A stretch of 64,000 bases of DNA from an uncultured Gammaproteobacteria bacterium (GCA_964515005.1 CAZEVT010000001.1:229616-293615), one strand, 5' to 3'. Shown: positions 7,900 to 58,690, counted from the stretch's first letter. Made by a program: numbers and translations. Notes: generated by a model not told the origin, from the sequence alone.

Positions 7900-8580
7900 A
7901 TGAAGACGATCTACATTTTCGCTGTCGTTCTAGTTGTCGGGATTGTGGGTGGCCTATTTATTTGGAGTAAGAATAAAACCCAATCTACAGCAGGCATGCC
8001 GGTCCCAGAAACGACCGGCGTTGAGGAGAAAATAGTAGAATCTATGAAACCAAAACAATACAGTGCCCCGCCCCAAATGGCGATTGATCCGACGAAATCA
8101 TATACCGCGACCATTACGACCGACAAAGGCGTCATGAAGGTCAAACTCAACGCCCGCGAAACGCCCGTCACGGTCAACAACTTCGTATTTCTGTCCCGGG
8201 AAGAGTTTTACAACAACACGGTGTTTCACCGGATCATAAAGGGATTCATGGTCCAGGGGGGAGATCCGCTCGGAAATGGCACAGGAAGTCCGGGGTACAA
8301 ATTTGCAGACGAAAAAATTACAGGTACCTATACGCGCGGCACCATTGCCATGGCAAACAGCGGCCCCAACACCAACGGCAGCCAGTTTTTCATCATGCAC
8401 GCCGACTACGGCCTCCCGAAAAACTACGTCATTTTCGGCGCAATTGATCCCGGCGACGCCGCAAGCCTGGCAACTCTGGACGCCATTGCGGCAACTCCGG
8501 TTGTCTCAAGCGGAATGGGGGAGCAGTCAAAACCAATCACCCCGCCTGTAGTACAGTCAATTACGATAAACGAACTTTGA
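7900..8580 (+). CDS. ppiB: Cyclophilin-type peptidyl-prolyl cis-trans isomerase, membrane anchored
   Basis: FHRIIKGFMVQGGDP and SQFFI motifs of cyclophilins; N-terminal TM. Confidence 0.85.
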   Translation: MKTIYIFAVVLVVGIVGGLFIWSKNKTQSTAGMPVPETTGVEEKIVESMKPKQYSAPPQMAIDPTKSYTATITTDKGVMKVKLNARETPVTVNNFVFLSREEFYNNTVFHRIIKGFMVQGGDPLGNGTGSPGYKFADEKITGTYTRGTIAMANSGPNTNGSQFFIMHADYGLPKNYVIFGAIDPGDAASLATLDAIAATPVVSSGMGEQSKPITPPVVQSITINEL

Positions 8581-9611
8581 TGAAAACATGGAAGAGGCTT
8601 CGAAAGAGCCCGCAGCTTTGGGAGCGGTATTTTATCCGCGAACAGGTCATCAAGAGGGTTCGAGCATTTTTTGACAAAGAAAAGTTCCACGAAATAGAAA
8701 CGCCTCTCCTCATTGCCCATCCGCCTGCAGAGTCCTATCTTGATGTATTTGAAACAACGCTTTTGAACCGCCTCCGGAAGCCCACGAAAGCGTATTTGTC
8801 TACCTCGCCCGAGGTACCTCTCAAAAAACTTATGGTCGCGGGTCTCGGGAACTGTTATTCCATCACAAAAAGTTTCCGCAATATGGAAACACAAAGTACG
8901 CTCCATAATCCGGAGTTTACGATTCTCGAGTGGTACCGGGTCGGCGCAGATTACATGCGTCTTATGGAAGACTGCGAAAATCTCGTTCGGGCAATCGTTG
9001 GCCACGATATACTCACGTATCAAAATCAAGTGATTGATCTCACAAGCCCCTGGAACCGGATCACCGTGGCTAGCGCTTTTAAAACATATGCAGACGTGAA
9101 TTTCGACGATTTTTTGGACGAAGAAGCAGCGCGCAAGATTGCCAAGGGTAAGGGGTATCAGGTAGAAAAGGGAAACACATGGGAAGAGTTGTATAACCAG
9201 ATATTCTTAAACGAAGTCGAGCCACACCTGGGGCAGGGGAAGCCGACGATTCTCTACGAGTTTCCATCAGTCATGGGTGCCCTTGCCAAGAAAAAAGAAA
9301 GCGACCCAAGATTTGCCGAGCGGTTTGAGTTTTATATCGCGGGACTCGAGTTGGGGGATGCGTACAGCGAGCTCACTGATCCGGTTGAACAGGAAAAGCG
9401 GTTTAAGAAAGAGCTTAGTGAGATTAAGCGGTTAGGAAAAACGAGCTACGACTACGACTTCGATTTTATCGAAGCGCTCAAGGTTGGTCTTCCGAAGTGT
9501 AGCGGCATCGCTGTGGGTGTTGACCGTCTTGTCATGCTGTTGGCCGATGTTGCCAACATTGCCGACACCCTCTTTTTCCCGGCGGGTGAGGAGTTTCCAT
9601 TGTCAGAATAA
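8580..9611 (+). CDS. epmA: EF-P lysine ligase EpmA (PoxA/GenX, class II LysRS paralog)
   Basis: Class II aaRS catalytic-core-like protein of ~340 aa lacking an anticodon-binding domain; sits immediately upstream of efp; ATG overlaps upstream stop (ATGA). Confidence 0.6.
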   Translation: MKTWKRLRKSPQLWERYFIREQVIKRVRAFFDKEKFHEIETPLLIAHPPAESYLDVFETTLLNRLRKPTKAYLSTSPEVPLKKLMVAGLGNCYSITKSFRNMETQSTLHNPEFTILEWYRVGADYMRLMEDCENLVRAIVGHDILTYQNQVIDLTSPWNRITVASAFKTYADVNFDDFLDEEAARKIAKGKGYQVEKGNTWEELYNQIFLNEVEPHLGQGKPTILYEFPSVMGALAKKKESDPRFAERFEFYIAGLELGDAYSELTDPVEQEKRFKKELSEIKRLGKTSYDYDFDFIEALKVGLPKCSGIAVGVDRLVMLLADVANIADTLFFPAGEEFPLSE

Positions 9612-9635
9612 GGAAACATAGCTATAATAAAAGCC

Positions 9636-10199
9636 ATGTCTACCATCTCAACCGCAGATTTTACCAAGGGCGGATTTATTGAGTTCAAAAGCGAACCGCA
9701 TCAGATTGTGGAATTTCAGCATGTGAATCCGGGGAAGGGGAGCGCGTTTGTCCGGACGCGCCTCAAGTCCCTTAAAACCGGTAAAGTGCAGGAGTTTACA
9801 TTCAAGTCAGGCGAAACCGTCACCGAAGTGCCGGTTGCGACCCGCGAAATGCAATATCTCTACAAAGAAGGTGACGCCTATGTGTTTATGGATAACACCT
9901 CGTATGAGCAGTTCAGCATTTCTGAGGGAATGCTGGGTCAGTACGTCCATTATCTTAAACCCAACGACACCTACCAGATATTAGTAAATGGAGACGCAGC
10001 CGTCGGCCTTCGGTTTCCCAAGAAAGTTTGCCTGAAGGTCACCGAGGCCACCGAAGGGGCAAAGGGTAACACCGTATCGGGAGCAACCAAAACCGTGATA
10101 GTGGAAACCGGCGCGGTTGTCACCGTTCCTTTATTTATCAAAGAAGGCGAGACTATCGCCATTGACCCGGAAACCGGAACGTATCTGGAGCGGGCATGA
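9636..10199 (+). CDS. efp: Elongation factor P
   Basis: N-terminus MSTISTADFTKGGFIEFKSEPHQIVEFQHVNPGKGSAFVRTRLK with conserved PGKG loop lysine. Confidence 0.9.
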   Translation: MSTISTADFTKGGFIEFKSEPHQIVEFQHVNPGKGSAFVRTRLKSLKTGKVQEFTFKSGETVTEVPVATREMQYLYKEGDAYVFMDNTSYEQFSISEGMLGQYVHYLKPNDTYQILVNGDAAVGLRFPKKVCLKVTEATEGAKGNTVSGATKTVIVETGAVVTVPLFIKEGETIAIDPETGTYLERA

Positions 10200-13382: not shown

Positions 13383-15455
13383 TTATAGCACGGGCCACGG
13401 AGAAATGATAAGGGGAGTTTTTTCTTCGTGTGAAAGTTTGCTCCAGATCTCCTCCGTCACAAACGGCATGAACGGGTGGAGGAGAGTCAGTAACGTCTTA
13501 TAAGAATCCGAAAGTACAGAATAGGAGATTTCCTGCTTCTTATATGCTTCAAGGAACCTGTCTGCAAATGTGTGCCAAATGAATTCATACAGTTCTTCCG
13601 CGGCTTGACCAAATTGATAGGCGTCTAATCGTTTTGTCGTCGTTTTTACGATCGCAGATATTTCTGTCTGTAATTTTTTATCCAGCGGTGAGTCGTTTTC
13701 ATTTTTTGTTTCTATCGTCGTTATGAACCGTGCGATATTCCAGAGTTTGTTGGCAAAGTTGCGCATTCCCCGAATTTTATCTTCGGAGACGGATAGGTCA
13801 TTGCCCGCGGCCGACCCATGGACAAGCGACATGCGGAGCGCATCGGCGCCGTATTGGTCGACCATTTTAAGAGGATTGATCACATTCCCCTTGGATTTGC
13901 TCATTTTCGCACCCTTGGCATCACGAACCAAGCCATGGAGGTAGATTGTCCGGAAAGGCACCTCACGGGTCATGTACAGCCCCAGCATGAGCATGCGGCA
14001 TACCCATACGGGCAAAATATCATAGCCTGTTTCCATGACTGACGTCGGGTAAAAATATTCAAAGTCTCCGGGTTGATTTGCCTTCAGTGTCGCAAATGGC
14101 CATTGGCCGGAAGAAAACCATGTGTCAAAGTTGTCGGCGTCCTGCACAAGATTGGTTTTGCCGCACGCAATACACGCCGTTGGTGTTTCACCGCTTGTTA
14201 CGGTCCAGGCATTGCAATCATCGCAGTGCCAAGCCGGAATCCGAATGCCCCATACAATCTGCCGGGAAATATTCCAATCATGGAAATTGGTAAGCCACAT
14301 GGTGGCGATTTTTTCAAATCGTCTCGGGACAAAGGTAATTTTTTTCTCCTTAATGGCTTTTTTGGCTTCATCGGTTACCGGTTTTACTTTTATATGCCAC
14401 TGGGAAAGCGGCAAAGGTTCCAGGACGTTGCCGCACTTATAGCAGGTGGCAACGGTGTGTGTATAGGCGGCATCGATGTGATCCAAGAGTCCTTTGGCCT
14501 CCAAATCTTTTGCGACCTGTTCACGGGCGGCATTCACCTTCATGCCTTTATAGTGGCCTGCGATATCGGTGAGTCTGCCGTCAAAGCCTATGACCTGTTT
14601 CATCGGCAAGTCATGGCGTTTTCCAATTTCAAAATCCGTAAAGTCATGAGCGGGTGTAACTTTGGCAACGCCGGTCCCGAATGTCGGATCAATAGCGGCA
14701 TCGCCTACGACTTTCACCTTGAAAGGTCCGAGTAGTCCTTCAACCGTAATTTCTTTGCCGATCCACTGTTTGTACCGCTTGTCTTTTGGGTGGACTGCAA
14801 CCGCGGTGTCGCCGAATTTCGTTTCCGGGCGTACGGTTGCAAGAACGAACGGTCCATATTTCATGTAATACAACGGATCAGTGCGCTCCACGTGGACGAC
14901 TTCTAAATCGGAAAAGCTTGTGCCATCGCGCGTACAATAATTTACGAGCCCTGCGGCCCGGTACACCAAGCCGTCATCAAACATTTTTTTGAACGTTTGA
15001 TGGACAATCGCGACGATTTTCGGGTCCAAGGTAAAAGTATTTCGAGACCAGTCAAGCGAAAATCCAAGCCGCCGGAGCTGATTTTCCATGGTGCCGCGAT
15101 TGGCATGCACGAAGTCCCAGATATTTTTGTAGAGCGTCTCGCGGTCAAAATCAAAGCGGCTCTTGTTCTCTTTCCCTAGTTGTTTTTCGTACACATACTG
15201 CGTTTCGAATCCCGCGTGATCGGCGCCAGGGAGCCAGAGCGTGGGGTCTCCTTTCATTCGGTGGTAGCGAACCATGATATCTTCAACCACATACATCGCG
15301 TGCCCGAGGTGTAGGTCTGCATTGGCGTTCGGGGGAGGGAGGAGGACGGTAAAAGGTTTTTTCTTTTTATCAATCTTTGGCGAAAAATACCCCCCCTTTT
15401 CCCACAGTTCGTAGATTTTTCCTTCAACGGCCGCTGGATTGTACGCTTTGTCCAT
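13383..15455 (-). CDS. valS: Valyl-tRNA synthetase, short form lacking C-terminal coiled-coil
   Basis: HLGH (HIGH-type) motif, KMSKS motif, editing-domain region, N-terminus MDKAYNPAAVEGKIYELWEK; start at Met-13 of the ORF (ORF-track ATG at 15491 is the alternative). Confidence 0.9.
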   Translation of the reverse strand: MDKAYNPAAVEGKIYELWEKGGYFSPKIDKKKKPFTVLLPPPNANADLHLGHAMYVVEDIMVRYHRMKGDPTLWLPGADHAGFETQYVYEKQLGKENKSRFDFDRETLYKNIWDFVHANRGTMENQLRRLGFSLDWSRNTFTLDPKIVAIVHQTFKKMFDDGLVYRAAGLVNYCTRDGTSFSDLEVVHVERTDPLYYMKYGPFVLATVRPETKFGDTAVAVHPKDKRYKQWIGKEITVEGLLGPFKVKVVGDAAIDPTFGTGVAKVTPAHDFTDFEIGKRHDLPMKQVIGFDGRLTDIAGHYKGMKVNAAREQVAKDLEAKGLLDHIDAAYTHTVATCYKCGNVLEPLPLSQWHIKVKPVTDEAKKAIKEKKITFVPRRFEKIATMWLTNFHDWNISRQIVWGIRIPAWHCDDCNAWTVTSGETPTACIACGKTNLVQDADNFDTWFSSGQWPFATLKANQPGDFEYFYPTSVMETGYDILPVWVCRMLMLGLYMTREVPFRTIYLHGLVRDAKGAKMSKSKGNVINPLKMVDQYGADALRMSLVHGSAAGNDLSVSEDKIRGMRNFANKLWNIARFITTIETKNENDSPLDKKLQTEISAIVKTTTKRLDAYQFGQAAEELYEFIWHTFADRFLEAYKKQEISYSVLSDSYKTLLTLLHPFMPFVTEEIWSKLSHEEKTPLIISPWPVL

Positions 15456-15786
15456 GAGGCAATTGTACTCTAGGGGCGCGCTGTGCGGCAAGCGTACTGG
15501 TGTTACCAGTCTTTTGAGGAACTATCCCTGCGGGCGCCCAGGCCAGCCAACAATCCACTGAGCCACGGTTGGATGTGGTGTGGTCGTCCGTTCGGTTGGC
15601 TTCTGTCAGGACGCCTGAATAGTCGACGAATATTGCGGGCAAACAAATTTTGTTGCCGGGTGGTTGCATCATTACCCGCAAAGACGTCTTCAATACCGTC
15701 TGTAAGATGTGTTTGGGGAACTTCTATTGATATCTTTGCCATGACGGTGATTATACCGTCAGCACCAGGAGGCGACAAGCGGAGAA

Positions 15787-16704: not shown

Positions 16705-17073
16705 ATGCCTGAACATATTGTATTCAAAATAGCACGAAATAGGTACATACGAGGGCTTGTTCTCGTATTTTTGGTCCTCGTGGGAGTCGGGGTCCTGCGC
16801 ACAGTCTATACCATATCCCAAAAACAAGGAATTGTTGCCGAAAGGAAAGCGGTCCTTGAGGCTGAAGAGGCGAAAAACAGGGAGCTTACCGCACGCCTGG
16901 AGGAAGCCACAAGCGCGGCGTTTGTTGAACGGATTGCACGGGACAAGCTGGGGCTGGTTCGCGCGGGGGAGACGGTGATTATCATGGATAAATCACAAGT
17001 TTTAAACCTCAACGACAAAGGAAGGCTTCAAGAATTGCCTTCATGGAAGCAGTGGTGGGAGCTATTTTTCTAG
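16705..17073 (+). CDS. ftsB: Septum formation initiator FtsB/DivIC-like cell division protein
   Basis: Single TM, coiled coil, and ERIARDKLGLVRAGETVI signature of the FtsB/DivIC family. Confidence 0.6.
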   Translation: MPEHIVFKIARNRYIRGLVLVFLVLVGVGVLRTVYTISQKQGIVAERKAVLEAEEAKNRELTARLEEATSAAFVERIARDKLGLVRAGETVIIMDKSQVLNLNDKGRLQELPSWKQWWELFF

Positions 17074-17145
17074 TGCCAGCGGCAGGGATCGGACCTGCTA
17101 CCAATGCTTTATGATAGCATCGCTCTACCAATGAGCTACGCTGGC
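17074..17145 (-). tRNA. tRNA-Met (anticodon CAU; elongator-type or possibly tRNA-Ile2), CCA not encoded
   Basis: Folds by hand into a cloverleaf: acceptor GCCAGCG/CGCUGGC, D arm GCUC-AUUGGUA-GAGC, anticodon loop AUCAUAA, T arm GCAGG-UCCGAUC-CCUGC; no GGG/CCC anticodon stem, so not an initiator. Confidence 0.6.
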
Positions 17146-18423: not shown

Positions 18424-18745
18424 TGTTCTTTAGAAGAATCGCGGGGTAGTGTAGAGTAGCACAGAAGGCTCAATATGGGCCCGTCGATATGCAAGTATCG
18501 GATGAAAATTTGGCTGTATCGGTGAAACCCAGATCGGGCAATACCGAGGCAACCTCCGATTAATCGGAGAGAGTCCGTAGAGACTATACGCCAAACCCTC
18601 ACAATACAGTGAGGAGATGATATAGTCCGGCACTCCCAGGAATGGGAGAATAACAGAAAAGCATAATCTTCTAGACCAGGCGCGCCTCCTGGCCCCGCAA
18701 CCAAGACACAAAAAAGCGACCGGAAGGGTCGCTTTTTGTTTGATA
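18424..18745 (+). ncRNA. Candidate structured non-coding RNA (~320 nt) of unknown class
   Basis: Non-coding interval bounded by a plus-strand TTGTCG-17-TATAAT promoter (18390-18418) and a GC hairpin plus T-run terminator (18712-18745); many short perfect stem-loops, including a GGAA-capped one; no class could be assigned. Confidence 0.35.
18712..18745. terminator. Bidirectional intrinsic terminator (aaaaaaGCGACCggaaGGGTCGCtttttg)
   Basis: 6-bp GC stem with A-run upstream and T-run downstream; serves rbp (minus) and the plus-strand candidate RNA. Confidence 0.7.
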
Positions 18746-21607: not shown

Positions 21608-21957
21608 AAGCCTTAAACCGCGTGACCGGTCGCTCCGGAGAAGATGTTGCCGCCCGTACTCTTCAAGACAAGGGATATACAATTCTCGAGCGAAATTTTG
21701 GGAGTAAATTTGGGGAAATAGATATTATTGCGAAAGATAAAAACACCCTCGTGTTTGTGGAGGTGAAGGCAAAAACCGGAATTGCATTTGGATCACCGGA
21801 AGAGATGGTCGGGCGGGGTAAATTGCAGCGGATTCGCAACATGGCGACCATCTATATGAACGGTACGTCTGTCTCATGCCGCATCGACGTGGTCGCGATT
21901 GTTTTGGGTGACAATAACGAAGTTGTCAGACTTACACATTATGAGAATGTGACTTAA
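21604..21957 (+). CDS. yraN: YraN-family (UPF0102) endonuclease
   Basis: EIDIIAKDKNTLVFVEVKAK motif of the UPF0102/YraN PD-(D/E)xK family; ATGA overlap with comM stop. Confidence 0.7.
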   Translation: MKALNRVTGRSGEDVAARTLQDKGYTILERNFGSKFGEIDIIAKDKNTLVFVEVKAKTGIAFGSPEEMVGRGKLQRIRNMATIYMNGTSVSCRIDVVAIVLGDNNEVVRLTHYENVT

Positions 21958-22318
21958 GCCATGAAGCAATACTTTTGAGGTCGGGTTTTTGGTTGTCTAC
22001 ATGCACCATAAAGTCGGCCGCGTCGTGGGCTTTTGCCAATAGATGATAGTTGTTGATCCAAAGAAATCGCTTGGTTGCTGCCCACGCCGTCCTTTTATTT
22101 CCATCAGTAAATGGATGGTTCATACATAAGGATTGCAAGAGTGCGGCCGCCATGGCAAAAATAGTGGGGTAGAGGTTTCGCCCGCCGAATGTTGCCTTCG
22201 GTCGTTCAATAGCAGAATGAAGCAACGTAAAATCCCGAACAATAGCTTTTGTTTTCGCGCGAGCAATAATTGCCTCATGGATGGCATATACCTCTTCAAT
22301 ATCAATGAATGCGATCAT
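21932..22318 (-). CDS. doc: Doc (death-on-curing) Fic-fold toxin
   Basis: HPFTDGNKRTA Doc-type Fic motif; 128 aa; immediately downstream of its antitoxin. Confidence 0.75.
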   Translation of the reverse strand: MIAFIDIEEVYAIHEAIIARAKTKAIVRDFTLLHSAIERPKATFGGRNLYPTIFAMAAALLQSLCMNHPFTDGNKRTAWAATKRFLWINNYHLLAKAHDAADFMVHVDNQKPDLKSIASWLKSHSHNV

Positions 22319-22320: not shown

Positions 22321-22575
22321 TTATCGATGCGCGAGTTCATCAAGCAGATCAGCATCTTCCTTGAGAAAGCCCTCAAGCCACTCGTGAAATTCTTTTTCGG
22401 ATCGGGATGGTTTTTGAAAATCTTTTTTGATGCGACGAATGAGAAATCCGTCCGCGTCGGGAATATAATTAACCGATACTTTTTGTCCCCGCCGCCATTT
22501 TGCCTCCTGCATGAGGGGCGCAGCAAGAACAACAGCGTCGCTGTTTCCGAGTTGTGTAACCTTTGTGATTTGCAT
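22321..22575 (-). CDS. phd: AbrB/MazE/Phd-like antitoxin partnered with Doc
   Basis: 84 aa, N-terminal swapped-hairpin-like (VVLAAPLMQEAKWRRGQKVSV), acidic C-terminus; 3-nt gap to doc. Confidence 0.65.
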   Translation of the reverse strand: MQITKVTQLGNSDAVVLAAPLMQEAKWRRGQKVSVNYIPDADGFLIRRIKKDFQKPSRSEKEFHEWLEGFLKEDADLLDELAHR

Positions 22576-22632
22576 ATGTACGAACCATGTTAGTACATAT
22601 CGTTTGACATGTCAAGAGCTATGTGATATACT
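22576..22632. promoter_or_regulatory. Divergent promoter region: palindromic TTGACATGTCAA supplies a -35 for both strands; plus-strand -10 TATACT (22627-22632) drives the trpB2-trpS leader; minus-strand promoter plus TATGTAC/GTACATA inverted repeat serves phd-doc
   Basis: TTGACA at 22604-22609, 17-nt spacer, TATACT; inverted repeat tatgtac...gtacata at 22575-22600, a likely antitoxin operator. Confidence 0.6.
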
Positions 22633-22639: not shown

Positions 22640-22917
22640 ATCTTAATACAAGCCATGAGGGCGTGTGGATGGAACCCCTCAATCCGAAAGGAAGGCTGAC
22701 CATAATCAGGTACGGAGGCGAAACCGTAAAAAGTCTGTCAACATATGTCGCAATAAGCGGAGTATGTCATGAATGAGACTTTCTCATTGTTTTGACGCAC
22801 TCCCCGTAAGGGGAGTTTTTGTGTCAACTAACGGGGAAGCGAAGCAAGGTGGCAACACGGTCGGACCGTCCTTGCAAATTTCGATGGGAACATCGGGGTT
22901 TGCACGGGCGGTTTTTT
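22640..22917 (+). promoter_or_regulatory. T-box riboswitch leader, putatively tRNA-Trp responsive
   Basis: T-box-like sequence AAGCAAGGUGGCAACACGG (22842-22860); canonical antiterminator GCAAGG / 7-nt bulge UGGCAAC / ACGG-UCGGA-CCGU / CCUUGC; competing terminator CCGUCCUUGCAAA...UUUGCACGGGCGG plus U6 (22866-22917); stem III hairpin CUCCCCGUAAGGGGAG; candidate UGG specifier in GUGGAUGGAAC; RBS GGAAAGGAGG precedes the ATG at 22939. Confidence 0.6.
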
Positions 22918-22938: not shown

Positions 22939-24246
22939 ATGAAACTGAATAATTTAAGGCAAGTAGAGATTCCGACACATTATCTTAATCTTCTCTACTT
23001 TCTCAAAACGTATCTTGGGGAATTGCCAGCGCCGCCGCTTGATCCCAAGACGAAACAGCCGATTGGTCCGGATGCTTTGGCGCGGTTATTTCCGATGGAA
23101 CTTATCAAACAGGAAGTTTCATTGGATCGGGAAATTCCAATTCCTGAAGAGGTGAGAGAGTTATATAAAATATACCGTCCATCGCCGCTTTTACGGGCAC
23201 GACGTTTGGAGAATGTACTCGGAACGCCCGCGCATATTTATTTCAAATACGAAGGCGTTTCGCCGGTGGGGAGTCACAAGTTGAATACCGCTTTGGCGCA
23301 GGCATATTACAACAAGAAAGAAGGTGTCATGGGTTTGACGACGGAAACCGGTGCCGGCCAATGGGGGTCAGCGCTCGCGCTTGCATGCAAGTTGTTTGAC
23401 CTAAAGTGTCGGGTGTTTATGGTGCGGACGTCCTTTGACAACAAGCCGTACAGGAAAACGGTTATGAATATTTATGGCGCGCAGGTGGTCGCCAGTCCTT
23501 CTCACGAAACGGCAGCCGGACGGTCGTTTCTGAAAAAGGACCCAAAGACATCCGGAAGTTTAGGGATGGCGATTTCTGAGGCAATCGAAGTGGCTGTAAC
23601 GACACCCAAGACACATTATGCATTAGGGAGTGTCCTGAACCATGTGCTTTTGCACCAAACCATTATCGGTCAGGAAGCCAAAAAGCAAATGGAAAAGGAA
23701 GGCGTGTATCCTGATATTGTCATCGGTTGTTGCGGGGGTGGGAGTAATCTCGCCGGGATATCCTTTGCTTTTCTGGCAGATAAGATTGCCGGAAAGAAAA
23801 AGAGCTTGCGGGTGGTAGCCGTCGAACCTACGGCGTGTCCCACGCTAACTCGTGGTGAGTATCGATACGATTCGGGTGATACGGCGGGGATGACACCTCT
23901 CATGAAAATGTATACGGTAGGGAGCGATTTTGTGCCGTCACCAATACACGCAGGGGGTTTGCGATATCACGGTGATGCCCCGTTGATTTGTTTTTTGTAC
24001 CACAGGAAGCTCATCGAAGCGGTGGCATACGATCAGTTGTCGGTTTTTGAGGCGGCTGAGCTTTTTGCCCAAACTGAAGGCATTATCTCGGCTCCCGAGT
24101 CCGCGCATGCCATTAAGCACGTGATTGTTGAGGCACTCCGTGCCAAAAAAGAAGGGAAAAAGAAAACGATTCTTTTTAACCTTTCCGGGCACGGGCTTTT
24201 GGATTTGGGTGCATATGAAGAGTTTTTGGAGGGGCGGATGAAATAA
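22939..24246 (+). CDS. trpB: TrpB2-type tryptophan synthase beta-like PLP-dependent enzyme
   Basis: PLP-lysine motif VGSHKLNTA; glycine-rich loop GCCGGGSN; ~435 aa as in TrpB2 subfamily; no trpA in window. Confidence 0.8.
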   Translation: MKLNNLRQVEIPTHYLNLLYFLKTYLGELPAPPLDPKTKQPIGPDALARLFPMELIKQEVSLDREIPIPEEVRELYKIYRPSPLLRARRLENVLGTPAHIYFKYEGVSPVGSHKLNTALAQAYYNKKEGVMGLTTETGAGQWGSALALACKLFDLKCRVFMVRTSFDNKPYRKTVMNIYGAQVVASPSHETAAGRSFLKKDPKTSGSLGMAISEAIEVAVTTPKTHYALGSVLNHVLLHQTIIGQEAKKQMEKEGVYPDIVIGCCGGGSNLAGISFAFLADKIAGKKKSLRVVAVEPTACPTLTRGEYRYDSGDTAGMTPLMKMYTVGSDFVPSPIHAGGLRYHGDAPLICFLYHRKLIEAVAYDQLSVFEAAELFAQTEGIISAPESAHAIKHVIVEALRAKKEGKKKTILFNLSGHGLLDLGAYEEFLEGRMK

Positions 24247-24305
24247 TACGTAAATGCCGCCCCGCAAAATCTGCGGGGCGGCATGATAGAATGAAAGGAG
24301 AATCT

Positions 24306-25658
24306 ATGAAACGAATTTTGTCAGGTATTACACCAAGTGGGGACGGAAGCCTGCATATCGGCAACTATTTAGGTGCCGTCAGGCAGTTTAATGAGCTCGC
24401 AAAAACGCATGAGTGTTTTCTGATGGTTGCCGATCTTCACGCACTTACCACCATTCAGGACAAAGCCATGCTTCAAAAAAATACCGAGACACTGATTCTC
24501 AACGAACTTGCGCTTCTTGGTGATTTGAAAAATATTACGTTTTTCCGGCAGTCCGATGTGCCGGCGCACACGGAACTGCAATCCATTCTCAACAACGTCA
24601 CGCCGCTTGGGCTTCTGAAACGGGCCCATGCGTATAAAGATAAACTCGGGAAAGACGTGATGGTGGATGATATTAACGTGGGACTCTTCAGTTACCCCAT
24701 GCTTATGGCGGCAGATATACTCCTCTACAAACCCGACCTCGTGCCGGTGGGGAAGGACCAGAAGCAGCATATTGAAATAACCCGCGATATCGCCCAGCGG
24801 TTTAACAAGATTTTCAAGAAAAATGTTTTTAAACTTCCTGACCCATACATCCCGGAAGAGGTCGCCGTTATTTCGGGAACTGACGGCAAACGGAAAATGA
24901 GCAAATCATTGGGGAACATCATCAGCATCTTTGAAAACGAAGAAATTATTCGCAAACAAGTCAACAGTACGTACACCGATCCGACCAGGAAACACGCAAG
25001 CGACCCCGGACACATTGAGGGGAACATGGTGTTCGCGTATCTTGAATTTTTCGGCGAAAAGGCCAAAAATGGCCAGTTGAAAGAGTTCTATACAAAAGGC
25101 CAAGTATCAGATGTTGAGGTAAAAAAGTATTTATTCGATTCTTTGATGAAAACATTCAAAAATGCCCGCGCGCGGTACGCGGATTTGGTTGCTCACCCCG
25201 AAAAAGTCAAAAAGATTTTGGAAGAGGGAGCGGCAAAAGCAAGAGCGGTTGCGGGGGTCACTACGAGTGAAGTACGGGAGGCAATAGGGTTAGTCAATAG
25301 CTATTCCATAGGAGCGGTTGGTCAGTCCTCGACCATAACGATTGATGAATTTACGCGTATGGAAATGCGGGTGGGGAAGGTGCTCGAGGCAACGAATAAA
25401 GAGGGGAGTGACAAACTTATTCGTCTACTGGTAGATGTAGGAGAACAAAAGTCTCGCGTAATATTTACCGGCGTCCGGCCTTTTGGTTACACTCCTGAAT
25501 TTTTCGCGGGTAAGCAGTTTTTCTTTATTACTAATCTCGCGCCTCGCCGCATGATGAATGAGGAGTCCCAAGGCATGATTATGGCCGTTGATGGCCCAGA
25601 CGGTAAACCGCTGTTTATATCCGCGGACGATATGCCGGTGGGTGCAAAGATACGATAA
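24306..25658 (+). CDS. trpS: Tryptophanyl-tRNA synthetase fused to a C-terminal OB-fold tRNA-binding (Myf/EMAP-like) domain
   Basis: Class I motifs GDGSLHIGNY (HIGH-type) and KMSKS; ~330-aa TrpRS core; ~115-aa C-terminal extension RMEMRVGKVLEATN...FFFITNL resembling the MetRS-C/CsaA tRNA-binding domain. Confidence 0.9.
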   Translation: MKRILSGITPSGDGSLHIGNYLGAVRQFNELAKTHECFLMVADLHALTTIQDKAMLQKNTETLILNELALLGDLKNITFFRQSDVPAHTELQSILNNVTPLGLLKRAHAYKDKLGKDVMVDDINVGLFSYPMLMAADILLYKPDLVPVGKDQKQHIEITRDIAQRFNKIFKKNVFKLPDPYIPEEVAVISGTDGKRKMSKSLGNIISIFENEEIIRKQVNSTYTDPTRKHASDPGHIEGNMVFAYLEFFGEKAKNGQLKEFYTKGQVSDVEVKKYLFDSLMKTFKNARARYADLVAHPEKVKKILEEGAAKARAVAGVTTSEVREAIGLVNSYSIGAVGQSSTITIDEFTRMEMRVGKVLEATNKEGSDKLIRLLVDVGEQKSRVIFTGVRPFGYTPEFFAGKQFFFITNLAPRRMMNEESQGMIMAVDGPDGKPLFISADDMPVGAKIR

Positions 25659-27570: not shown

Positions 27571-27614
27571 AGATGAACGAAGTATACCACGAATAAAGGT
27601 GCTACAATAGCCTC

Positions 27615-28502
27615 ATGAATCGCCTCGTTCTTATCGATGGCAACGCGGTTTTGCACCGCGCGTACCATGCAATTCCACCCCTCACCGCGCCTGATGGGTC
27701 GGTCGTCAATGCGGTCTACGGATTTGCATCGATGCTTGTCCGGCTCGTCCACGATCTCAAGCCTACTCATATTGCGGTAGCCTTTGACCGCCCCAAGCCC
27801 ACTTTCCGGAAGAAACTGTTTGAAGGCTACCAGGCCAAGCGTCCGAAGATGGACGACGCGCTTTCCGACCAGATTCCCAAAGTGCATGATTTGATCACCG
27901 CCTTCGGGATTCCGATTTTTGAAAAAGACGGATTTGAGGCAGATGACGTGCTCGGAACACTGGCAAAAAAAGCCAGAGATCAAGTGATCATTGTGACGGG
28001 GGATAGAGATATATTGCAGCTTGTTAAAGATGATAAAGTTTTTGTGTACATGCCTACGAAAGGGTTATCCGAGGCGAAATTGTACGATGAAAAAGCCGTG
28101 GTCGAACGGATGGGAGTGGCACCAAACAAAATTCCGGATTTTAAGGCACTGGCCGGAGATCCATCCGATAACTATCCCGGAGTACCCGGCATTGGTCCCA
28201 AAACAGCGGTCGCACTCCTCACCAAATACAAATCTCTTGAAAAAATTCTTGCAACAAAAGAGCTATCATCAACTGAAAAAGAAAGTGCGCGCATGTCCTA
28301 CGATCTTGCAACAATCCGTACAAACGTGCCTCTTGAAGGCTCCCTCGCGCCCACAGGAAGCCTGAATACGCCGGAAGCGATCGAGGAGTTGAGTAGATAT
28401 GGATTTCGGTCACTCATTAAACGGATAACAGGGGAGGTCAAACAGGAAGTCTCCAAAAAACAAAAGACTCAAAAAACATCCGAGCAGCAGCTGCTGCTGT
28501 AA
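27615..28502 (+). CDS. 5'-3' exonuclease (FEN-like, Pol I N-terminal-domain homolog)
   Basis: LVLIDGNAVLHRAYHAIPP N-terminus, 5'-3' exonuclease acidic motifs, H3TH region GIGPKTAVALL. Confidence 0.8.
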   Translation: MNRLVLIDGNAVLHRAYHAIPPLTAPDGSVVNAVYGFASMLVRLVHDLKPTHIAVAFDRPKPTFRKKLFEGYQAKRPKMDDALSDQIPKVHDLITAFGIPIFEKDGFEADDVLGTLAKKARDQVIIVTGDRDILQLVKDDKVFVYMPTKGLSEAKLYDEKAVVERMGVAPNKIPDFKALAGDPSDNYPGVPGIGPKTAVALLTKYKSLEKILATKELSSTEKESARMSYDLATIRTNVPLEGSLAPTGSLNTPEAIEELSRYGFRSLIKRITGEVKQEVSKKQKTQKTSEQQLLL

Positions 28503-31376: not shown

Positions 31377-33938
31377 TTAGTTTTCTTGTTCTTCAACTTT
31401 CTTATCAAAGTGGTCAATGTTTAAATCATATGAGTAAATCCATGATTGTCCGTTCGGGTCGATGCGCGTTTGGCCTTGTAGTGCAGGCGAAGAATAATTT
31501 TCTTTATGGGGAAATAGTACCGCGAGTGCGGCTAAACGTTCTGCTAATTGATATTTCGCGTACCAGTCACGAATGGTACGTACAACAAATCGAGCTTGTT
31601 CAATGGCCGATTCGTCATCCATGAGTTTTTCTCCGATTTTGGGTATGACCGTTTCAACCAATTGACCAGATTTAGTGTCTACGGGTATGTTATAAGTGAT
31701 GAAGGTGTCGGCATCTTTTTCGTCAAGCTCCCGAAGGTGAGGTCCGTGCGGATGTATCTGAATGATAAACTCATTGTTGCTTGAGCAAGACGCGGTCCAG
31801 GCGCAGTGCTGAAATTTAATTTCGGGGATTTCGGATAATTTATCTTTTGGAATATGGCCGACAAAAATTTCTGTAAGCGCTGCGTTTCCCCGCCACGCGT
31901 GATATCCGCCATATTTTGATTTTGTATAAAATGGATTGGCAAAAAACTCATCAATATCCTCTTCTGATGTGAAGACGGCCCACGGGCCTTTCCCGCCGTC
32001 AACATCCGGGAAGTGTGCGGTTCGAAGCGTGGCATCCCCGCCCGAACGGAGAATTTCCTTCACACGGCTTTTGATACCCACCACATCGTCTGCTTGTTTG
32101 ATATCGTACTCCATACGGATGTCCCGGGGAATTACCTGAATAAATGCGGCTTCAATCTTGGCTTTTCTGGATTGATATTCTTCCAAAGAAGTAAGCTTTT
32201 GGGTTGCCGTTTCGGCAATGTCGGAGATTTTCCATTCATCTTCCGGCGTCACTAAAAGTTGCCAAGGGTTTTGTCTCCGCTGCACATCCCACGATTTTGC
32301 TATTTCCAGAGCGTCCGCTGTTAAAAGGCTGCTCCCTGGTATTTCGGCGAGGGGGATAATCCCTCGGAATACTTCCCCAGTGGTTCCGTTTATGGTGACG
32401 ACGTCTCCTTTTTGTAGAGATTGATGCAGGCGGCCATCAAAAATGATCGGTCGATTCATACGCGCTCCTATGCGACCGGAGTGCGCGCCAATGCCTCCGC
32501 CGTGAGTGAACACACCTGCCACATTTTGAGGAAGTTTCAATAGATCGATCTTGGTGTTTTTTGGGGCCATCAGTACAACGTCAAGACGTGGTTGTTTTTT
32601 GGCCTCTTCTATGGAAAATACGACTACCCCGGTCGCGTGCCCATTCGTTATTCGTTGTCCGGTCGTGACCAAATCCCGAAGTCTTGCTTTTTCCATGGCT
32701 TTGGGGTCCAAATCGTAGTCCAAAACTGAATAGAGAATTCCCGCGGTTGCCAGCCGCATTGCAGTTTTTTCTGACATCTTTGCATCCTTTATTTGTTCGA
32801 GGAGCCAGAGAACATATGCGGGATTGGTGAGTGGTTCTCTGCGATCCTGAAGACCCCATCTATGTTCGTGTCCTTCAGCATCAACTTGGATGGTAAATTC
32901 AAAGTCCCGGGGGAATTGATAATAACTTTCAAGATCCTGGATCCACCTGCGTATTTCCTGTTTACCCGCATCGGAAATTGGAAGATCATCAATACTCATC
33001 TGTCTGTGTGGCGAGTCGCCGACAGGCGCATTTCCTTGCACGTGGGGTAACCATCCGACCACAGGCTCCTTGTCCAGTGTTTGCGGATCCCGCGAAAGCA
33101 CAACGCCGGACCCAGACCCTTCCCATTGAGAATTACCCCATACCATTCTCTGTACGGTGACTGCGGTTCCCAAATACTCCGATATACCAAACCGCCTGCG
33201 GTAGGCAATAGCTTCCGGACTGTTCCAAGATTCAAATACCGCATTCGTAGCCAAACGAAGTTGTTCATGAGGGTCCTGGGGAAATTCTTGGCACATATAT
33301 TTTACCCGAGCCTTCGTTATTTCCAAAAAAGATTTGATCATGAATAAGGGCAGTTCGTTGATACGTGCAAACCCCAGTGCTTCTTTGGCCGTGTCTTTGA
33401 GTTTTTCAATAACGGACATGTCGACGTGACAGATGTCCTCGGCAAATTGTTTGACGAAATGGTAATATGCAATCCACGCAGCATTTTCTCCAATTTCCTT
33501 TGCAAGCGCATGGATGGTATTTTTATTGAGTCCGATATTGAGGATTGTTTTCATGGCACCGGGCATGGAAGTTTCAGCGCCGGATCGGACGGAAACAAAT
33601 AAGGGGTGTTCCGGGTCACCGAAGCGTTCCTTAGTGATCTTTTCCAACTGACCCACGCGTGTCGTCAATTCTTCAGCCACTGGTTTCGGTAAAGCATTTT
33701 CAGAAAGATATGCTCTTCCTACATCGGTGCTTAAAGTAAACTCCGGGGGAATGGGGATTCCAAGCTTCGTCATTACCAAAAGACTTAACGCTTTACCACC
33801 GAGGGCTTCCTTCGTTGCGGGAACGAGTGAGTCTTCATCGGTATCCCAGGATGCCCGGCTGTATGAAAATTGCCGCGGTTCTCCCTCGGTTGAATGTAAT
33901 CTGTCCTGTTCTGGCCGTCTTAACGATGTGGATGCCAT
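31377..33938 (-). CDS. PEP-utilizing-enzyme family phosphotransferase: PPDK-type N-terminal ATP-grasp domain + central phospho-His swivel domain + unrecognised ~300-aa C-terminal domain (no TIM-barrel PEP domain)
   Basis: N-terminus GGKALSLLVMTKLGIPIPPEF...YYHF like PPDK/PpsA nucleotide-binding domain; swivel domain ...VAGVFTHGGGIGAHSGRIGARMNRPIIFDG...DVVTINGTTGEVF; C-terminal region matches nothing I recognise. Confidence 0.65.
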   Translation of the reverse strand: MASTSLRRPEQDRLHSTEGEPRQFSYSRASWDTDEDSLVPATKEALGGKALSLLVMTKLGIPIPPEFTLSTDVGRAYLSENALPKPVAEELTTRVGQLEKITKERFGDPEHPLFVSVRSGAETSMPGAMKTILNIGLNKNTIHALAKEIGENAAWIAYYHFVKQFAEDICHVDMSVIEKLKDTAKEALGFARINELPLFMIKSFLEITKARVKYMCQEFPQDPHEQLRLATNAVFESWNSPEAIAYRRRFGISEYLGTAVTVQRMVWGNSQWEGSGSGVVLSRDPQTLDKEPVVGWLPHVQGNAPVGDSPHRQMSIDDLPISDAGKQEIRRWIQDLESYYQFPRDFEFTIQVDAEGHEHRWGLQDRREPLTNPAYVLWLLEQIKDAKMSEKTAMRLATAGILYSVLDYDLDPKAMEKARLRDLVTTGQRITNGHATGVVVFSIEEAKKQPRLDVVLMAPKNTKIDLLKLPQNVAGVFTHGGGIGAHSGRIGARMNRPIIFDGRLHQSLQKGDVVTINGTTGEVFRGIIPLAEIPGSSLLTADALEIAKSWDVQRRQNPWQLLVTPEDEWKISDIAETATQKLTSLEEYQSRKAKIEAAFIQVIPRDIRMEYDIKQADDVVGIKSRVKEILRSGGDATLRTAHFPDVDGGKGPWAVFTSEEDIDEFFANPFYTKSKYGGYHAWRGNAALTEIFVGHIPKDKLSEIPEIKFQHCAWTASCSSNNEFIIQIHPHGPHLRELDEKDADTFITYNIPVDTKSGQLVETVIPKIGEKLMDDESAIEQARFVVRTIRDWYAKYQLAERLAALAVLFPHKENYSSPALQGQTRIDPNGQSWIYSYDLNIDHFDKKVEEQEN

Positions 33939-34663: not shown

Positions 34664-34723
34664 ACGTGACGGGAGTATAGCAGAATGGATACGGAGAGTA
34701 AAACTATAAGATTAAATAGTGTA

Positions 34724-35726: not shown

Positions 35727-36742
35727 TTCTCACTGAGCTTAGCCTCCAACAATTCCGAAGCTACGGAAAAAAATCATTTGTGTTTTCTCCCACGACCACT
35801 CTTGTCGTGGGTCCTAATACCGCGGGGAAAACAAATATTCTTGAGGCGATTATGATGATGGCAACGGGTAAAAGTTTCCGCGCGGACCGGGATGCAGAGA
35901 TGATTCGGTGGGGGGATTCGTTCTGCCGAATCAAGGCTCAAATTTCAGATCAAACAACATTGGAATTACTATTAACCCCGACAAAAAAATTTCTCGTCAA
36001 TGGTATTGCACGCCGGCAAATTGACTTTGTCGGTAATCTGCGGGCAGTTCTTTTTTGGCCGGAACACCTGGAACTCGTGACCGATAGCCCCTCGATGCGG
36101 CGAAAGTATTTGGATTATGTACTGGTGCAGATAGACCGCGAGTATCGCAGAAATTTAATTTCTTACGAGCGGGGATTGCGGCAGAGAAACCGTCTTCTAG
36201 ATCTTATTAGCGAGGGCCGCGCGCACCGGCACCAGCTTGGGTTTTGGGACCAGCTGCTGATCCGTTCCGGAGGGTATTTGACGGATAAACGGGCAGCGTA
36301 TATTGACTTTGTCAACAGTTTTCAGTCTTTGGTTGAAGGGTTTCAGATCGAATACGACAAGAGCGTCATCTCAGAGGGGAGACTCCAGCAGTATGGCCAG
36401 GAAGAGGTGGCGGTCAAAGCAACACTGGTGGGACCGCACCGGGATGACTTCGTAGTTCTCAAGAATGATCTGGATTTAAGTAAATACGGAAGCCGCGGGG
36501 AGCAACGCCTCGCCATTTTATGGTTGAAGCTTGCGGAACTTGCGTATATTGATGGTGAAACCGGGGAGCGGCCGCTCCTCATCTTGGATGATATATTTTC
36601 AGAGCTAGACGCGCGTCACCGAAAATTAGTTTTGGATCTTTTGGGTAAACAGCAAACGGTCGTCAGTTCGGCGGAGGAAGAAGTGGTGACCCTTTTCAAA
36701 AGGCGCAAGCTTGCGGCAACCATTATCCGGTTAGGCGGATAA
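35723..36742 (+). CDS. recF: DNA replication and repair protein RecF
   Basis: L.L..FRSY N-terminus, Walker A GPNTAGKTNILEAI, signature and Walker B LLILDDIFSELD. Confidence 0.85.
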   Translation: MILTELSLQQFRSYGKKSFVFSPTTTLVVGPNTAGKTNILEAIMMMATGKSFRADRDAEMIRWGDSFCRIKAQISDQTTLELLLTPTKKFLVNGIARRQIDFVGNLRAVLFWPEHLELVTDSPSMRRKYLDYVLVQIDREYRRNLISYERGLRQRNRLLDLISEGRAHRHQLGFWDQLLIRSGGYLTDKRAAYIDFVNSFQSLVEGFQIEYDKSVISEGRLQQYGQEEVAVKATLVGPHRDDFVVLKNDLDLSKYGSRGEQRLAILWLKLAELAYIDGETGERPLLILDDIFSELDARHRKLVLDLLGKQQTVVSSAEEEVVTLFKRRKLAATIIRLGG

Positions 36743-36744
36743 TT

Positions 36745-37545
36745 GTGTACAATACACTCATGAAAGCAGTAACGACAGATGACGTCAAAATGCTCGTCAC
36801 CCCAGCACGCGGCTCACATAAAGGGCAAAACGGCCGACTTCTGGTTATCGGCGGATCCCACCTGTTTCATGCCGCGAGCCTGTGGGCGCTCACGGTTGCG
36901 TCCCGGATTGTAGACCTCGTGCATTACTCTTCGGTGCCGGAAAACAATGCGATAGTGCACGAAGAAAAAAAAGAATTCAGAAACGGAATCGTGGTACCAC
37001 GAACGGATGTGGATGCCTACATTGAGGAGGACGACGTTATTCTTTTAGGTCCCGGCATGACGCGGGATAGTGAAACAGAAACACTCACGAATTCGTTGCT
37101 TAAGAAATATCCAAATAAACAGTGGGTTTTGGATGCCGGGGCGCTGCAGATGATGGATCTGAATTTTATTCCCAACCACGCCATTCTAACGCCCCACCAC
37201 GGTGAATTTGCGCACGCTTTTGGAGAGGCAGATGTTGCCAGTGTTGCCCGCAAATATCAATGTATTGTGCTTCTCAAAGGAGATAAAGATATCGCTTCTG
37301 ATGGCCGAGAAACACGGATCATTGAGGGCGGAAATCCCGGGATGACCAAGGGTGGGACCGGAGATGTGCTTGCCGGGCTTATTGCGGCTTTGGCCTGTAA
37401 AAACGACCCATTTCTGGCGACAATAGCAGGATCATTTATCAATAAAAAAGCAGGAGACGCGTTATTTGCAAAAGTCGGTCCCTACTTTAATGCCACGGAC
37501 CTTGCCAACCAAATTCCCCTGACGATGAAAGAGCTTCTTTTATAG
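36745..37545 (+). CDS. nnrD: ADP-dependent NAD(P)H-hydrate dehydratase (YjeF C-terminal/Nnr family)
   Basis: Carbohydrate-kinase-like fold with GGTGDVLAGLIAAL motif. Confidence 0.75.
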   Translation: MYNTLMKAVTTDDVKMLVTPARGSHKGQNGRLLVIGGSHLFHAASLWALTVASRIVDLVHYSSVPENNAIVHEEKKEFRNGIVVPRTDVDAYIEEDDVILLGPGMTRDSETETLTNSLLKKYPNKQWVLDAGALQMMDLNFIPNHAILTPHHGEFAHAFGEADVASVARKYQCIVLLKGDKDIASDGRETRIIEGGNPGMTKGGTGDVLAGLIAALACKNDPFLATIAGSFINKKAGDALFAKVGPYFNATDLANQIPLTMKELLL

Positions 37546-48734: not shown

Positions 48735-48762
48735 AAAAAACCCGCTTTGGGCGGGTTTTTTA
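48735..48762. terminator. Bidirectional intrinsic terminator aaaaaaCCCGCtttgGGCGGGtttttt
   Basis: GC stem flanked by A-run and T-run, between convergent genes. Confidence 0.75.
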
Positions 48763-58619: not shown

Positions 58620-58690
58620 TTTATCCCCCTATAGGGGATATAATACGGAACCTCGACAATCTTGTCAAGTGTCTTGTACAATACATATCT

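Follow-up and report, generated by a model that had tools for sequence, protein, structure and literature searches.

A tryptophanyl-tRNA synthetase fused to a Trbp111-type tRNA-binding domain beside a stand-alone trpB2: a probable tryptophan supply-and-charging module in a putative Gottesmanbacteria-like bacterium

A 64,000-nt stretch of DNA (GCA_964515005.1, CAZEVT010000001.1:229616-293615; hereafter the window, meaning the whole stretch that was analysed) encodes a stand-alone TrpB2-type pyridoxal phosphate (PLP) enzyme (trpB2) and, 59 nt further on the same strand, a tryptophanyl-tRNA synthetase (TrpRS, trpS) whose C-terminus carries a tRNA-binding domain with a Trbp111-type oligonucleotide/oligosaccharide-binding (OB) fold. 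The fusion of TrpRS with a Trbp111-type domain is real and lineage-wide, no earlier description of it could be found, and in mechanistic terms TrpRS is a new host for a well-known appended domain. Together with a leader upstream of trpB2 and a hairpin between the two genes, the fusion gene probably belongs to a minimal tryptophan (Trp) supply-and-charging module made up of two overlapping transcription units and not of one attenuated operon, a reading that we favour while leaving appreciable room for doubt. The nearest relatives of the window TrpRS are found in metagenome-assembled genomes of Candidatus Gottesmanbacteria and other Microgenomates of the Candidate Phyla Radiation (CPR; Patescibacteria), with 70-85% identity, and a public database protein is identical to it over the whole 450 amino acids (aa). 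The host of the module is accordingly predicted from sequence to be a Gottesmanbacteria-like CPR bacterium with a tiny genome. The features of the locus, with the basis of each in brackets, are the following.

24306-25295, + strand: class Ib TrpRS, residues 1-330, with the catalytic core and the helices that bind the anticodon (hidden Markov models, full-length structure model)
25296-25340, + strand: flexible linker, approximately residues 331-345 (predicted local distance difference test score, pLDDT, below 50 in the full-length model)
25320-25658, + strand: Trbp111/MetRS-C-type OB fold, residues ~339-450, and stop codon (hidden Markov models, Protein Data Bank (PDB) matches, structure model)
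22604-22632, + strand: putative leader promoter of the sigma-70 type, TTGACA, 17 nt and TG-extended TATACT, 11 of 12 matches (promoter scan)
22646-22917, + strand: predicted Trp-specific T-box-like transcriptional leader, ~270 nt (weak Rfam match, alignment of 17 leaders, RNAalifold)
22670-22672, + strand: putative specifier UGG, a Trp codon with a purine after it, within the loop of the short Stem I hairpin (alignment of 17 leaders)
22844-22875, + strand: predicted antiterminator, GCAAGG/CCUUGC (6 bp), 7-nt bulge UGGCAAC, ACGGU/ACCGU (5 bp) (folding, alignment)
22864-22917, + strand: predicted intrinsic terminator, mutually exclusive with the antiterminator, ending in six U (22912-22917) (folding)
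22939-24246, + strand: trpB2, stand-alone TrpB2-type PLP enzyme, 435 aa (Pfam, NCBIfam/TIGR models, PDB matches)
24254-24284, + strand: perfect 13-bp GC-rich hairpin with a 5-nt loop, 8 nt past the trpB2 stop codon (folding, listing of inverted repeats)
24284-24292, + strand: putative extended −10 element of trpS, TGATAGAAT, in which the T of the TG is the last base of the hairpin (sequence reading, motif in relatives, enrichment)
24295-24300, + strand: Shine-Dalgarno (SD) sequence of trpS, AAGGAG (sequence reading)

The TrpRS core scores 293 bits against the TIGR00233 trpS model over residues 2-329 (cut-off 176.75) and matches PF00579 with E = 9e-63. Its HIGH-type motif LHIGNYLG near the N-terminus and KMSKSLGN at approximately residue 197 occupy invariant or near-invariant columns among homologues. 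In the full-length model two folded parts are joined by a low-confidence linker, the length of which varies among homologues (548 alignment columns for the 450-aa protein). The linker and OB domain overlap as listed, since the Trbp111 match starts at residue 339 and low model confidence extends to residue 345. The original prediction had likened the C-terminal extension to the tRNA-binding domains of the Myf, EMAP and CsaA type, and both the PF01588 search and the structure model bear out a tRNA_bind OB fold of the Myf/Trbp111/MetRS-C type. PF01588 matches residues 359-452 of the 455-aa form of the protein with E = 1.2e-17 and 64.2 bits (cut-off 27). The best NCBIfam matches of the domain are MetRS C-terminal models and models of stand-alone tRNA-binding proteins. 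The score against metG_C_term, 96.8 bits, is below the equivalog-domain cut-off of 116.65, which makes the domain a member of the tRNA_bind family without making it a MetRS domain. By sequence it matches Aquifex Trbp111, MetRS C-domains and the Pyrococcus MetRS-related protein best among PDB entries (E ~1e-19), and the CsaA and EMAPII types match more weakly (EMAPII E 1e-5 to 1e-7; TMt ~0.5-0.58).

A model of the OB domain built from 54 homologues has a pLDDT of 90.8 and forms a five-stranded OB barrel that superposes on the solved tRNA_bind members 2cwp, 8vtz, 3ers and 1mkh with template modelling (TM) scores of 0.79-0.91 and root-mean-square deviations of 1.7-2.2 Å (0.83-0.91 and 1.7-2.0 Å for 2cwp and 8vtz alone). 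The match spans positions 4-112 of the 113-residue Trbp111 chain, which identifies the domain as the short form of the dimer type, as opposed to the EMAPII pseudo-dimer. In the Trbp111 co-crystal structure published in 2024, the fold grips the terminal C75/A76 of any tRNA, and mutation of R75, K33, S82, M85 or F78 impairs binding (PMC11286949). HMMER alignment to 8vtz places R414, K370, S421 and M424 of the window TrpRS at R75, K33, S82 and M85, respectively, so that four of the five contact residues are conserved, and all four show little or no variation among homologues. Since TrpRS is obligately homodimeric, two OB domains would be available to pair. The best-supported function of the domain, by analogy, is that of the MetRS C-domain and Arc1p, which in the summary given in PMC11286949 capture tRNA in cis, independently of sequence, and lower the Km.

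All the homologue clusters listed, at least 120, carry PF00579 together with PF01588, and approximately a quarter of them also carry PF04073. A comparison sample was assembled from 64 complete trpS genes of related species-level genomes. The OB domain is in frame with TrpRS in 37 of them and is encoded by a separate gene immediately downstream of trpS in about 11, while in others it lies 1-3 kb away; an N-terminal extension of ~160 aa or more is present in 23 of the 64 enzymes. This pattern of fused and adjacent genes, indicative of fusion or fission, supports a functional link between the OB domain and TrpRS. The closest relatives of the OB domain are stand-alone Trbp-like proteins of ~110 aa from Patescibacteria, suggesting that the fusion arose in this lineage from a Trbp111-like gene located next to trpS. 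The fusion had been called unusual, and it is so with respect to the textbook TrpRS and to the 2024 list of aminoacyl-tRNA synthetase (aaRS) fusions to OB domains, which comprises MetRS, PheRS, TyrRS and Entamoeba enzymes and does not include TrpRS (PMC11286949); within Microgenomates, however, it is the common state. No description of a TrpRS-OB fusion was found in the literature searched, in which the works naming both TrpRS and Trbp111 deal with trypanosomatid complexes, and searches on CPR tryptophan synthase and on Patescibacteria aaRS architectures gave nothing relevant.

Many Microgenomates encode a triple-domain TrpRS of 615-650 aa consisting of a YbaK/ProX-type editing domain, the TrpRS core and a C-terminal tRNA_bind domain; these enzymes are found, among others, in the related loci (designated here by L and a number) L007, L008, L014, L018, L022, L025, L028, L033, L034 and L070. 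PF04073 was confirmed at residues 25-142 in the single triple-domain cluster representative that was scanned (P0037). To our knowledge, no TrpRS has been reported with an editing domain.

In the leader preceding trpB2, the short Stem I is predicted to have a GA/K-turn-like base and to present the specifier in its terminal loop, and it is followed by a Stem II region, Stem III, the antiterminator and the terminator. The specifier positions T25, G26 and G27 are unchanged in 17 of 17 aligned leaders while the surrounding stem covaries, and RNAalifold run on the 17 leaders finds compensatory changes in 22 of 33 predicted pairs. The antiterminator folds with −12.4 kcal/mol when the 3′ arm of the terminator is omitted; GGUGG-A is unchanged across the 17 leaders, and helix A1 covaries (AAGG/CCUU, ACGG/CCGU, AGGG/CCCU). 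The terminator (−37.4 kcal/mol, z = −5.4) is likewise kept by compensatory changes in the 17 leaders. More than 25 related loci have a leader homologous to this one (e.g., L004 3217-3447, L015 2316-2589 and L066 2821-3081), and T-box leaders lie upstream of trpS in 26 of the loci examined. Members of this leader family precede tRNA-Trp, trpB2, trpB1-trpA or TrpRS-paralog genes in the relatives, which argues for Trp as the specificity of the leader. Rfam searches of related loci (13 at the gathering threshold, 6 at E ≤ 1) returned no T-box and no other known cis-regulator, and the T-box identity therefore rests on our own alignment and its covariation. The antiterminator with its UGGN bulge, the alternative terminator and the matching specifier suggest that the leader works like a transcriptional Trp T-box, albeit a divergent one.

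In the two closest relatives, L004 and L005, a tRNA-Trp gene and a small open reading frame (ORF) are located between the leader and trpB2; the window has neither, and the tRNA-Trp gene appears to have been lost from it. This tRNA-Trp(CCA) gene begins a few nt past the U-run of the T-box terminator, upstream of trpB2, in L004 (3453-3526), L005 (3457-3530), L023 (3463-3535) and L030 (3404-3476), an arrangement in which uncharged tRNA-Trp would appear to control transcription of its own gene. The small ORF, of ~24-30 codons, is kept just upstream of trpB2 in relatives (L003, L004 at 3528-3614, L005, L008, L019 at 3517-3588, L021, L023, L030, L034, L051, L063, L066 and L072) and reads ...(F/V)WK(T/S)(K/R)GREYWR...; between one and three of its codons are for Trp, and its product could be a leader or arrest peptide, or a micro-protein.

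The gene downstream of the leader, trpB2, has the SD sequence AAGGAGG 7 nt upstream of its ORF, and PALP is the only Pfam domain found in its product. The original identification as a TrpB2-type PLP enzyme is confirmed by 692 bits against NF009057 (cut-off 366) and 627.5 bits against TIGR01415 (cut-off 518.85), with only 157 bits against the canonical trpB model TIGR00263 (cut-off 392). The closest solved structures are the Sulfolobus TrpB2 chains 6hul_B, 4qys_B and 6hte_B (E = 1e-115 to 1e-130), and the GSHK motif containing the PLP lysine, TETGAGQWG and GGGSN align with 6hul_B; the PLP lysine, catalytic Glu and PLP phosphate loop of a TrpB2 are all present. The predicted regulation by a Trp T-box-type leader is the strongest computational argument that TrpB2 supplies Trp, and it strengthens the earlier proposal of a Trp salvage route from indole and serine. 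The serine donor in that proposal needs correction, since the TrpB2 enzymes characterised so far use O-phospho-L-serine in preference to serine (Busch et al. 2014, as cited in PMC11917138); a high affinity for indole has been reported for the family (Hettwer & Sterner 2002, as cited in PMC11917138).

In seven loci trpB2 is accompanied by a gene for 133-155 aa whose ...ILDGHHR... motif looks ParB/Srx-like on inspection (L003 2456-2839, L019 3111-3509, L021 512-913, L034 2632-3030, L051 4492-4875, L063 3067-3510 and L066 3101-3496). The idea that this gene, upstream of trpB2 in seven relatives, encodes a ParB/SerK-like serine kinase supplying O-phosphoserine was dropped, as it has no Pfam match at E ≤ 0.001 and is absent from the window.

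The statement that no trpA, C, D, E or F lies nearby also held. Of 66 crude ORFs in the window, 50 were scanned with Pfam and the remaining 16, including the four largest (2678-5188, 13383-15491, 31377-33938 and 55872-57992), were read by eye only; the 50 included no further Trp-pathway enzyme (trpA, C, D, E, F or G), and in a tblastn search of the window with TrpA and TrpB1 queries from the lineage, trpB2 itself was the sole match.

The slot upstream of trpS is filled differently among the relatives: trpB2 is found there in 18 loci and trpB1-trpA in 11, whereas 10 loci have an Asp/Glu-type racemase, 8 a TrpRS paralog together with a 308-aa protein, and 4 a 504-aa protein with a BtpA-family protein. 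The OB fusion accompanies trpB2 in 14 of the 18 loci and trpBA in 1 of the 11, a difference that may reflect shared ancestry. The window locus, consisting of leader, trpB2, hairpin and trpS-OB, is the most reduced version. The racemase gene (Asp/Glu/hydantoin racemase, PF01177) stands directly before trpS, sometimes between trpB2 and trpS, in ten genomes (L003 4300-5001, L006, L009, L012, L027, L028 3817-4518, L033, L053, L059 and L072). The paralog pair is led by a T-box and lies upstream of the main trpS; it encodes a 308-aa protein without a Pfam match and a 363-aa TrpRS/TyrRS-like paralog (PF00579, ~30% identical to the core) in L007, L014 (1841-3842), L022, L026, L031, L054, L068 and L071.

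The hairpin between trpB2 and trpS had been described as a perfect 10-bp GC stem at 24254-24280 without a T-run; the perfect GC-rich stem and the missing T-run stand, and its extent is corrected to 13 bp at 24254-24284. None of the other perfect stem-loops among the 25 inverted repeats listed in the window is as long. Its folding energy is −30.6 kcal/mol, with z = −6.2, and none of 200 shuffled sequences folds as well. The stem-loop is thus as stable and GC-rich as expected of a terminator; however, no U-tract is located 3′ of it, where GAUAGAAUGAAAGG follows the stem, and the terminator scan is silent there. U-run terminators do occur elsewhere in the window, namely in the leader and at 18711-18737 and 48735-48761. 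A strong stem-loop directly after the trpB2 stop codon is found in 14 of 18 related loci in addition to the window, with none of the 14 having a U-tract, and the stem-loops at this same intergenic place are unrelated in sequence (e.g., GCCGCCCCGC, CGTGATTCCTGCCCGG, GCGGGCGGG, TCTCTGGGAGAG and TGGCGCCCCGTCA). In ten of these loci trpS is the next gene after trpB2 (shuffle z from −4.3 to −7.1), and in the other four trpB2 is followed by a racemase, a YbaK-trpS or another gene. The presence of the hairpin whatever gene follows indicates that it belongs to the 3′ end of trpB2 and not to the 5′ end of trpS, and it probably acts as a 3′-end stabiliser or protective element, or at most as a leaky terminator. 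Of the two roles originally put forward, RNA stability is therefore plausible, whereas a second attenuation checkpoint is not supported, as the hairpin lacks a U-tract, tracks the trpB2 3′ end and has no competing antiterminator-type pairing that could be seen. The hairpin loops were also inspected for a CCA resembling an anticodon, in the manner of operator mimicry of the thrS type, an idea that was rejected because the loops are not conserved.

Immediately after the hairpin lies the putative extended −10 element of trpS. The equivalent position in the relatives reads TGATAGAAT, TGATACAAT, TGGTAATAT, TGCTATTAT, TACAAT or TATAAT, despite differing hairpins. Enrichment was assessed on 36 related trpS genes without the N-terminal extension, with random 40-nt windows as background. 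A −10-like hexamer is present in the 40 nt before the trpS start, its end lying 7-24 nt from the ATG, in 32 of the 36, compared with 14.7% of background windows, and a TG-extended −10 in 15 of the 36, compared with 1.5%. The enrichment holds regardless of the upstream gene, and some relatives' trpS genes have the −10 element without an SD sequence (e.g., L064, L035 and L050). An element kept and enriched whatever gene lies upstream suggests that trpS has its own promoter. The claim that the two genes are co-transcribed, all under one leader, consequently found no support, and read-through from trpB2 would be at most additive. A transcript from this promoter would probably start within or past the SD sequence that lies between the −10 element and the ATG; the SD sequence would then be absent from it and may thus serve mainly read-through transcripts. 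The best start of trpS is the ATG at 24306, with AAGGAG 5 nt upstream, giving 450 aa; the ATG at 24291 (455 aa) was rejected, as it overlaps the −10 element, has no SD sequence and disagrees with the identical database protein, which has 450 aa.

The first genes of many transcription units in the window are preceded by a TG-extended −10 element ending ~6-12 nt before the ATG, without an SD sequence (e.g., 27594-27617, 36739-36762, 34664-34685 on the negative strand, 62287-62310 and 58671-58693), suggesting that leaderless or very short-leadered mRNAs are common in this genome.

Taken together, these elements can be arranged in a provisional mechanism. In the first unit, the sigma-70 promoter would drive the divergent T-box leader, whose short Stem I would expose UGG to the tRNA-Trp anticodon. 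In its uncharged form this tRNA would stabilise the antiterminator through pairing of the bulge UGGC with the tRNA 3′ end GCCA (G73-C-C-A), letting RNA polymerase past the terminator into trpB2, and TrpB2 would join scavenged indole and O-phosphoserine, or possibly serine, to form Trp. The trpB2 message would end in the very stable GC hairpin that lacks a U-tract. In the second unit, the extended −10 element would give trpS its own, presumably constitutive, very short-leadered transcript, to which read-through from the first unit would add SD-led trpS expression during Trp starvation. The OB domain of the resulting TrpRS would capture the 3′ CCA of tRNA non-specifically in cis, in analogy to the MetRS C-domain, Arc1p and Trbp111, raising the local tRNA concentration and lowering the Km for tRNA-Trp, and the OB domains could pair across the TrpRS dimer.

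Several points weigh against this picture. On the leader side, the Rfam T-box model (RF00230) gives 18 bits with E = 0.78, far from the gathering threshold of 93 bits. Stem I comprises only ~45-60 nt, with the specifier in its terminal loop and no distal interdigitated T-loop platform seen, whereas a long Stem I is said to be required for transcriptional T-boxes and the short Stem I class has been described mostly for translational Actinobacterial T-boxes (PMC7583486). A tRNA-Trp gene was not found in the window, and the discriminator base is therefore unreadable here. On the side of the enzymes, the equivalent of Trbp111 F78 is M417 in the window TrpRS, and a lack of trpA, C, D, E and F can be stated for most of the ORFs in the 64 kb and not for the genome. 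The conservation of the trpS SD sequence right after the −10 element is awkward if the promoter transcript starts downstream of it. The trpS promoter and the 3′-end role of the hairpin are deduced from motifs and conservation only, and all activities, transcript ends and the direction of regulation are likewise read from the DNA.

The SD sequence bears directly on an alternative that we consider unlikely, namely that trpB2 and trpS form a single operon with the upstream leader as sole control, the hairpin as an internal processing or stability element or second attenuator, and TGATAGAAT as no promoter at all. An SD sequence conserved just before trpS would be usable by a polycistronic mRNA, the two genes share a strand and are separated by 59 nt without a U-tract terminator, and the trpS genes of relatives are often located at the 3′ end of T-box-led gene strings. 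A single operon does not, however, account for a −10-like element strongly enriched before trpS whatever the upstream gene, nor for the several relatives in which trpS has this element and no SD sequence; the hairpin follows trpB2 even where the next gene is not trpS, and an attenuator would call for the alternative pairing or U-tract that was not seen. The neighbourhood also speaks to the proposal that TrpB2 makes no Trp, and that it catalyses another PLP-dependent β-replacement or elimination, such as serine or phosphoserine deamination or the synthesis of another amino acid, with trpS as a coincidental neighbour. The physiological role of TrpB2 was long debated, and no indole source is evident in the window. 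Against this, the leader in front of trpB2 has an invariant UGG specifier, the catalytic motifs are intact, the slot holds either trpB2 (18 loci) or trpB1-trpA (11 loci) in relatives, as expected of interchangeable Trp-forming steps, and the characterised TrpB2 enzymes make Trp (Busch 2014; Hettwer & Sterner 2002; both as cited in PMC11917138). We regard this proposal as very improbable.

For the OB domain, it is conceivable, if distinctly unlikely, that it is not mainly a tRNA affinity tag and instead forms a module for catalysis or quality control by which the aminoacylated CCA end is held or deacylated, together with the YbaK-type domain of the relatives. In Arc1p and Trypanosoma brucei MCP1, the OB folds can deacylate Ala-tRNA by means of residues that correspond to the CCA pocket (2025 paper, PMC12021450), the pocket residues S421 and R414 are conserved in the window TrpRS, and 23 of 64 relatives' enzymes also have the N-terminal extension, with PF04073 in one representative. 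However, two of the three critical MCP1 residues, K326 and R331, correspond to Ala and Met here, as seen in the motif NLAPRRMMNEES at the MCP1-critical positions, aligned by our own reading of the EMAPII-type motif. The authors of PMC12021450 call it unclear whether folds of the stand-alone Trbp111 type have any enzymatic activity, and the window TrpRS has no YbaK domain. A bolder extension, which we regard as a long shot, would make the Microgenomates TrpRS the first with dedicated tRNA 3′-end quality control, the Trbp111-type domain and the N-terminal YbaK domain of the relatives capturing and proofreading the aminoacylated CCA. The need for it could arise from Trp analogues made by a promiscuous TrpB2 from environmental indoles, which TrpRS would otherwise attach to tRNA-Trp, and the conserved U-less hairpin (12-13 bp stem, 5-7 nt loop, acceptor-T-minihelix-like) might be a cis site to which the Trbp111-type domain binds in autoregulation. 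The supply-and-charging module with two overlapping transcription units, and with cis tRNA capture as the role of the OB domain, is thus retained as the preferred reading.

The genes surrounding trpB2-trpS encode DprA, a ComM-type Mg-chelatase-like ATPase, UPF0102, a Fic/Doc toxin pair, FtsH, a 5′-3′ exonuclease, a glycosyltransferase and an ABC transporter, and none of them is tied to Trp metabolism. The toxin-antitoxin pair lies on the negative strand, divergent to the leader and upstream of it (Fic/Doc 21932-22318 and a small upstream gene 22321-22575). One half of a perfect 12-nt palindrome, TTGACATGTCAA (within 22595-22624; inverted repeat I2), forms the −35 element of the leader promoter, and the palindrome gives back-to-back −35 elements for the T-box leader on the positive strand and the toxin-antitoxin genes on the negative strand. 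The single tRNA of the window is a tRNA-Met (17073-17145). Elsewhere in the window, an EpmA/GenX-type truncated class II LysRS-like gene (8577-10199, PF00152 only) is located directly upstream of the elongation factor P (EF-P) gene, constituting an EF-P lysylation pair. In the related loci, group I intron matches exceed the Rfam gathering score in L004 (1545-1755, negative strand), where the match is close to a tRNA-Met gene, and in L043 (907-1112, negative strand).

Synthetases have classically gained affinity for tRNA by acquiring tRNA-binding OB folds as appendages, and TrpRS is not on the published list of hosts. The natural split, fused and triple-domain (YbaK-TrpRS-OB) variants within one uncultivated, reduced-genome group allow these architectures to be compared. 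The module also suggests, in a concrete and testable way, by what means a CPR bacterium without amino-acid biosynthesis might obtain Trp: one salvage enzyme would be switched on by a tRNA-sensing leader that joins a short Stem I to transcription termination, a combination called atypical in reviews. Known mechanisms are not overturned by trpB2-trpS; more surprising are the triple-domain YbaK-TrpRS-OB enzymes, which lie outside the window, and the short-Stem-I transcriptional T-box family, which lies outside the core claim.

Among known regulatory systems, the leader is most readily compared with the Actinobacterial ileS T-boxes with short or ultrashort Stem I, with which it shares the UGGN bulge, the antiterminator/terminator switch, a specifier in the short Stem I and the Stem II region; unlike RF00230 members and the Actinobacterial T-boxes, the CPR leader pairs a short Stem I with a transcription terminator. 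A full-text literature search on T-box riboswitches and the Candidate Phyla Radiation returned no relevant paper. The trpB2 gene resembles those of Sulfolobus TrpB2a and TrpB2i and of Thermotoga TrpB2 in exceeding the TrpB2 equivalog cut-offs and in lying outside any trp operon, and differs from them in its Trp T-box, in adjoining trpS and in having no other trp gene found in the region. In salvage of the Chlamydia trpBA or Thermotoga TrpB2 style, a reduced-genome organism makes Trp from external indole with the last enzyme only; compared with Chlamydia, the window has TrpB2 without TrpA, and T-box control in place of TrpR. The OB domain belongs with MetRS-C, Trbp111 (Aquifex, Escherichia coli YgjH) and the Pyrococcus MetRS-related protein, sharing PF01588, 35-38% identity and the signature NLxPRK...ESQGM, and bacterial MetRS likewise carries a C-terminal OB fold on a class I synthetase through a flexible linker. 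It differs from these in that the host enzyme is TrpRS, F78 is replaced by Met, and the closest relatives are the stand-alone Trbp-like proteins of Patescibacteria. Human TyrRS and AIMP1 (EMAPII), Arc1p and MCP1 contain domains of the same OB superfamily, and the class Ic TyrRS, the sister of TrpRS, has a C-terminal tRNA_bind-type domain; EMAPII-type domains, however, are pseudo-dimers of ~165 aa, whereas the domain in the window is the short, dimer-type form.

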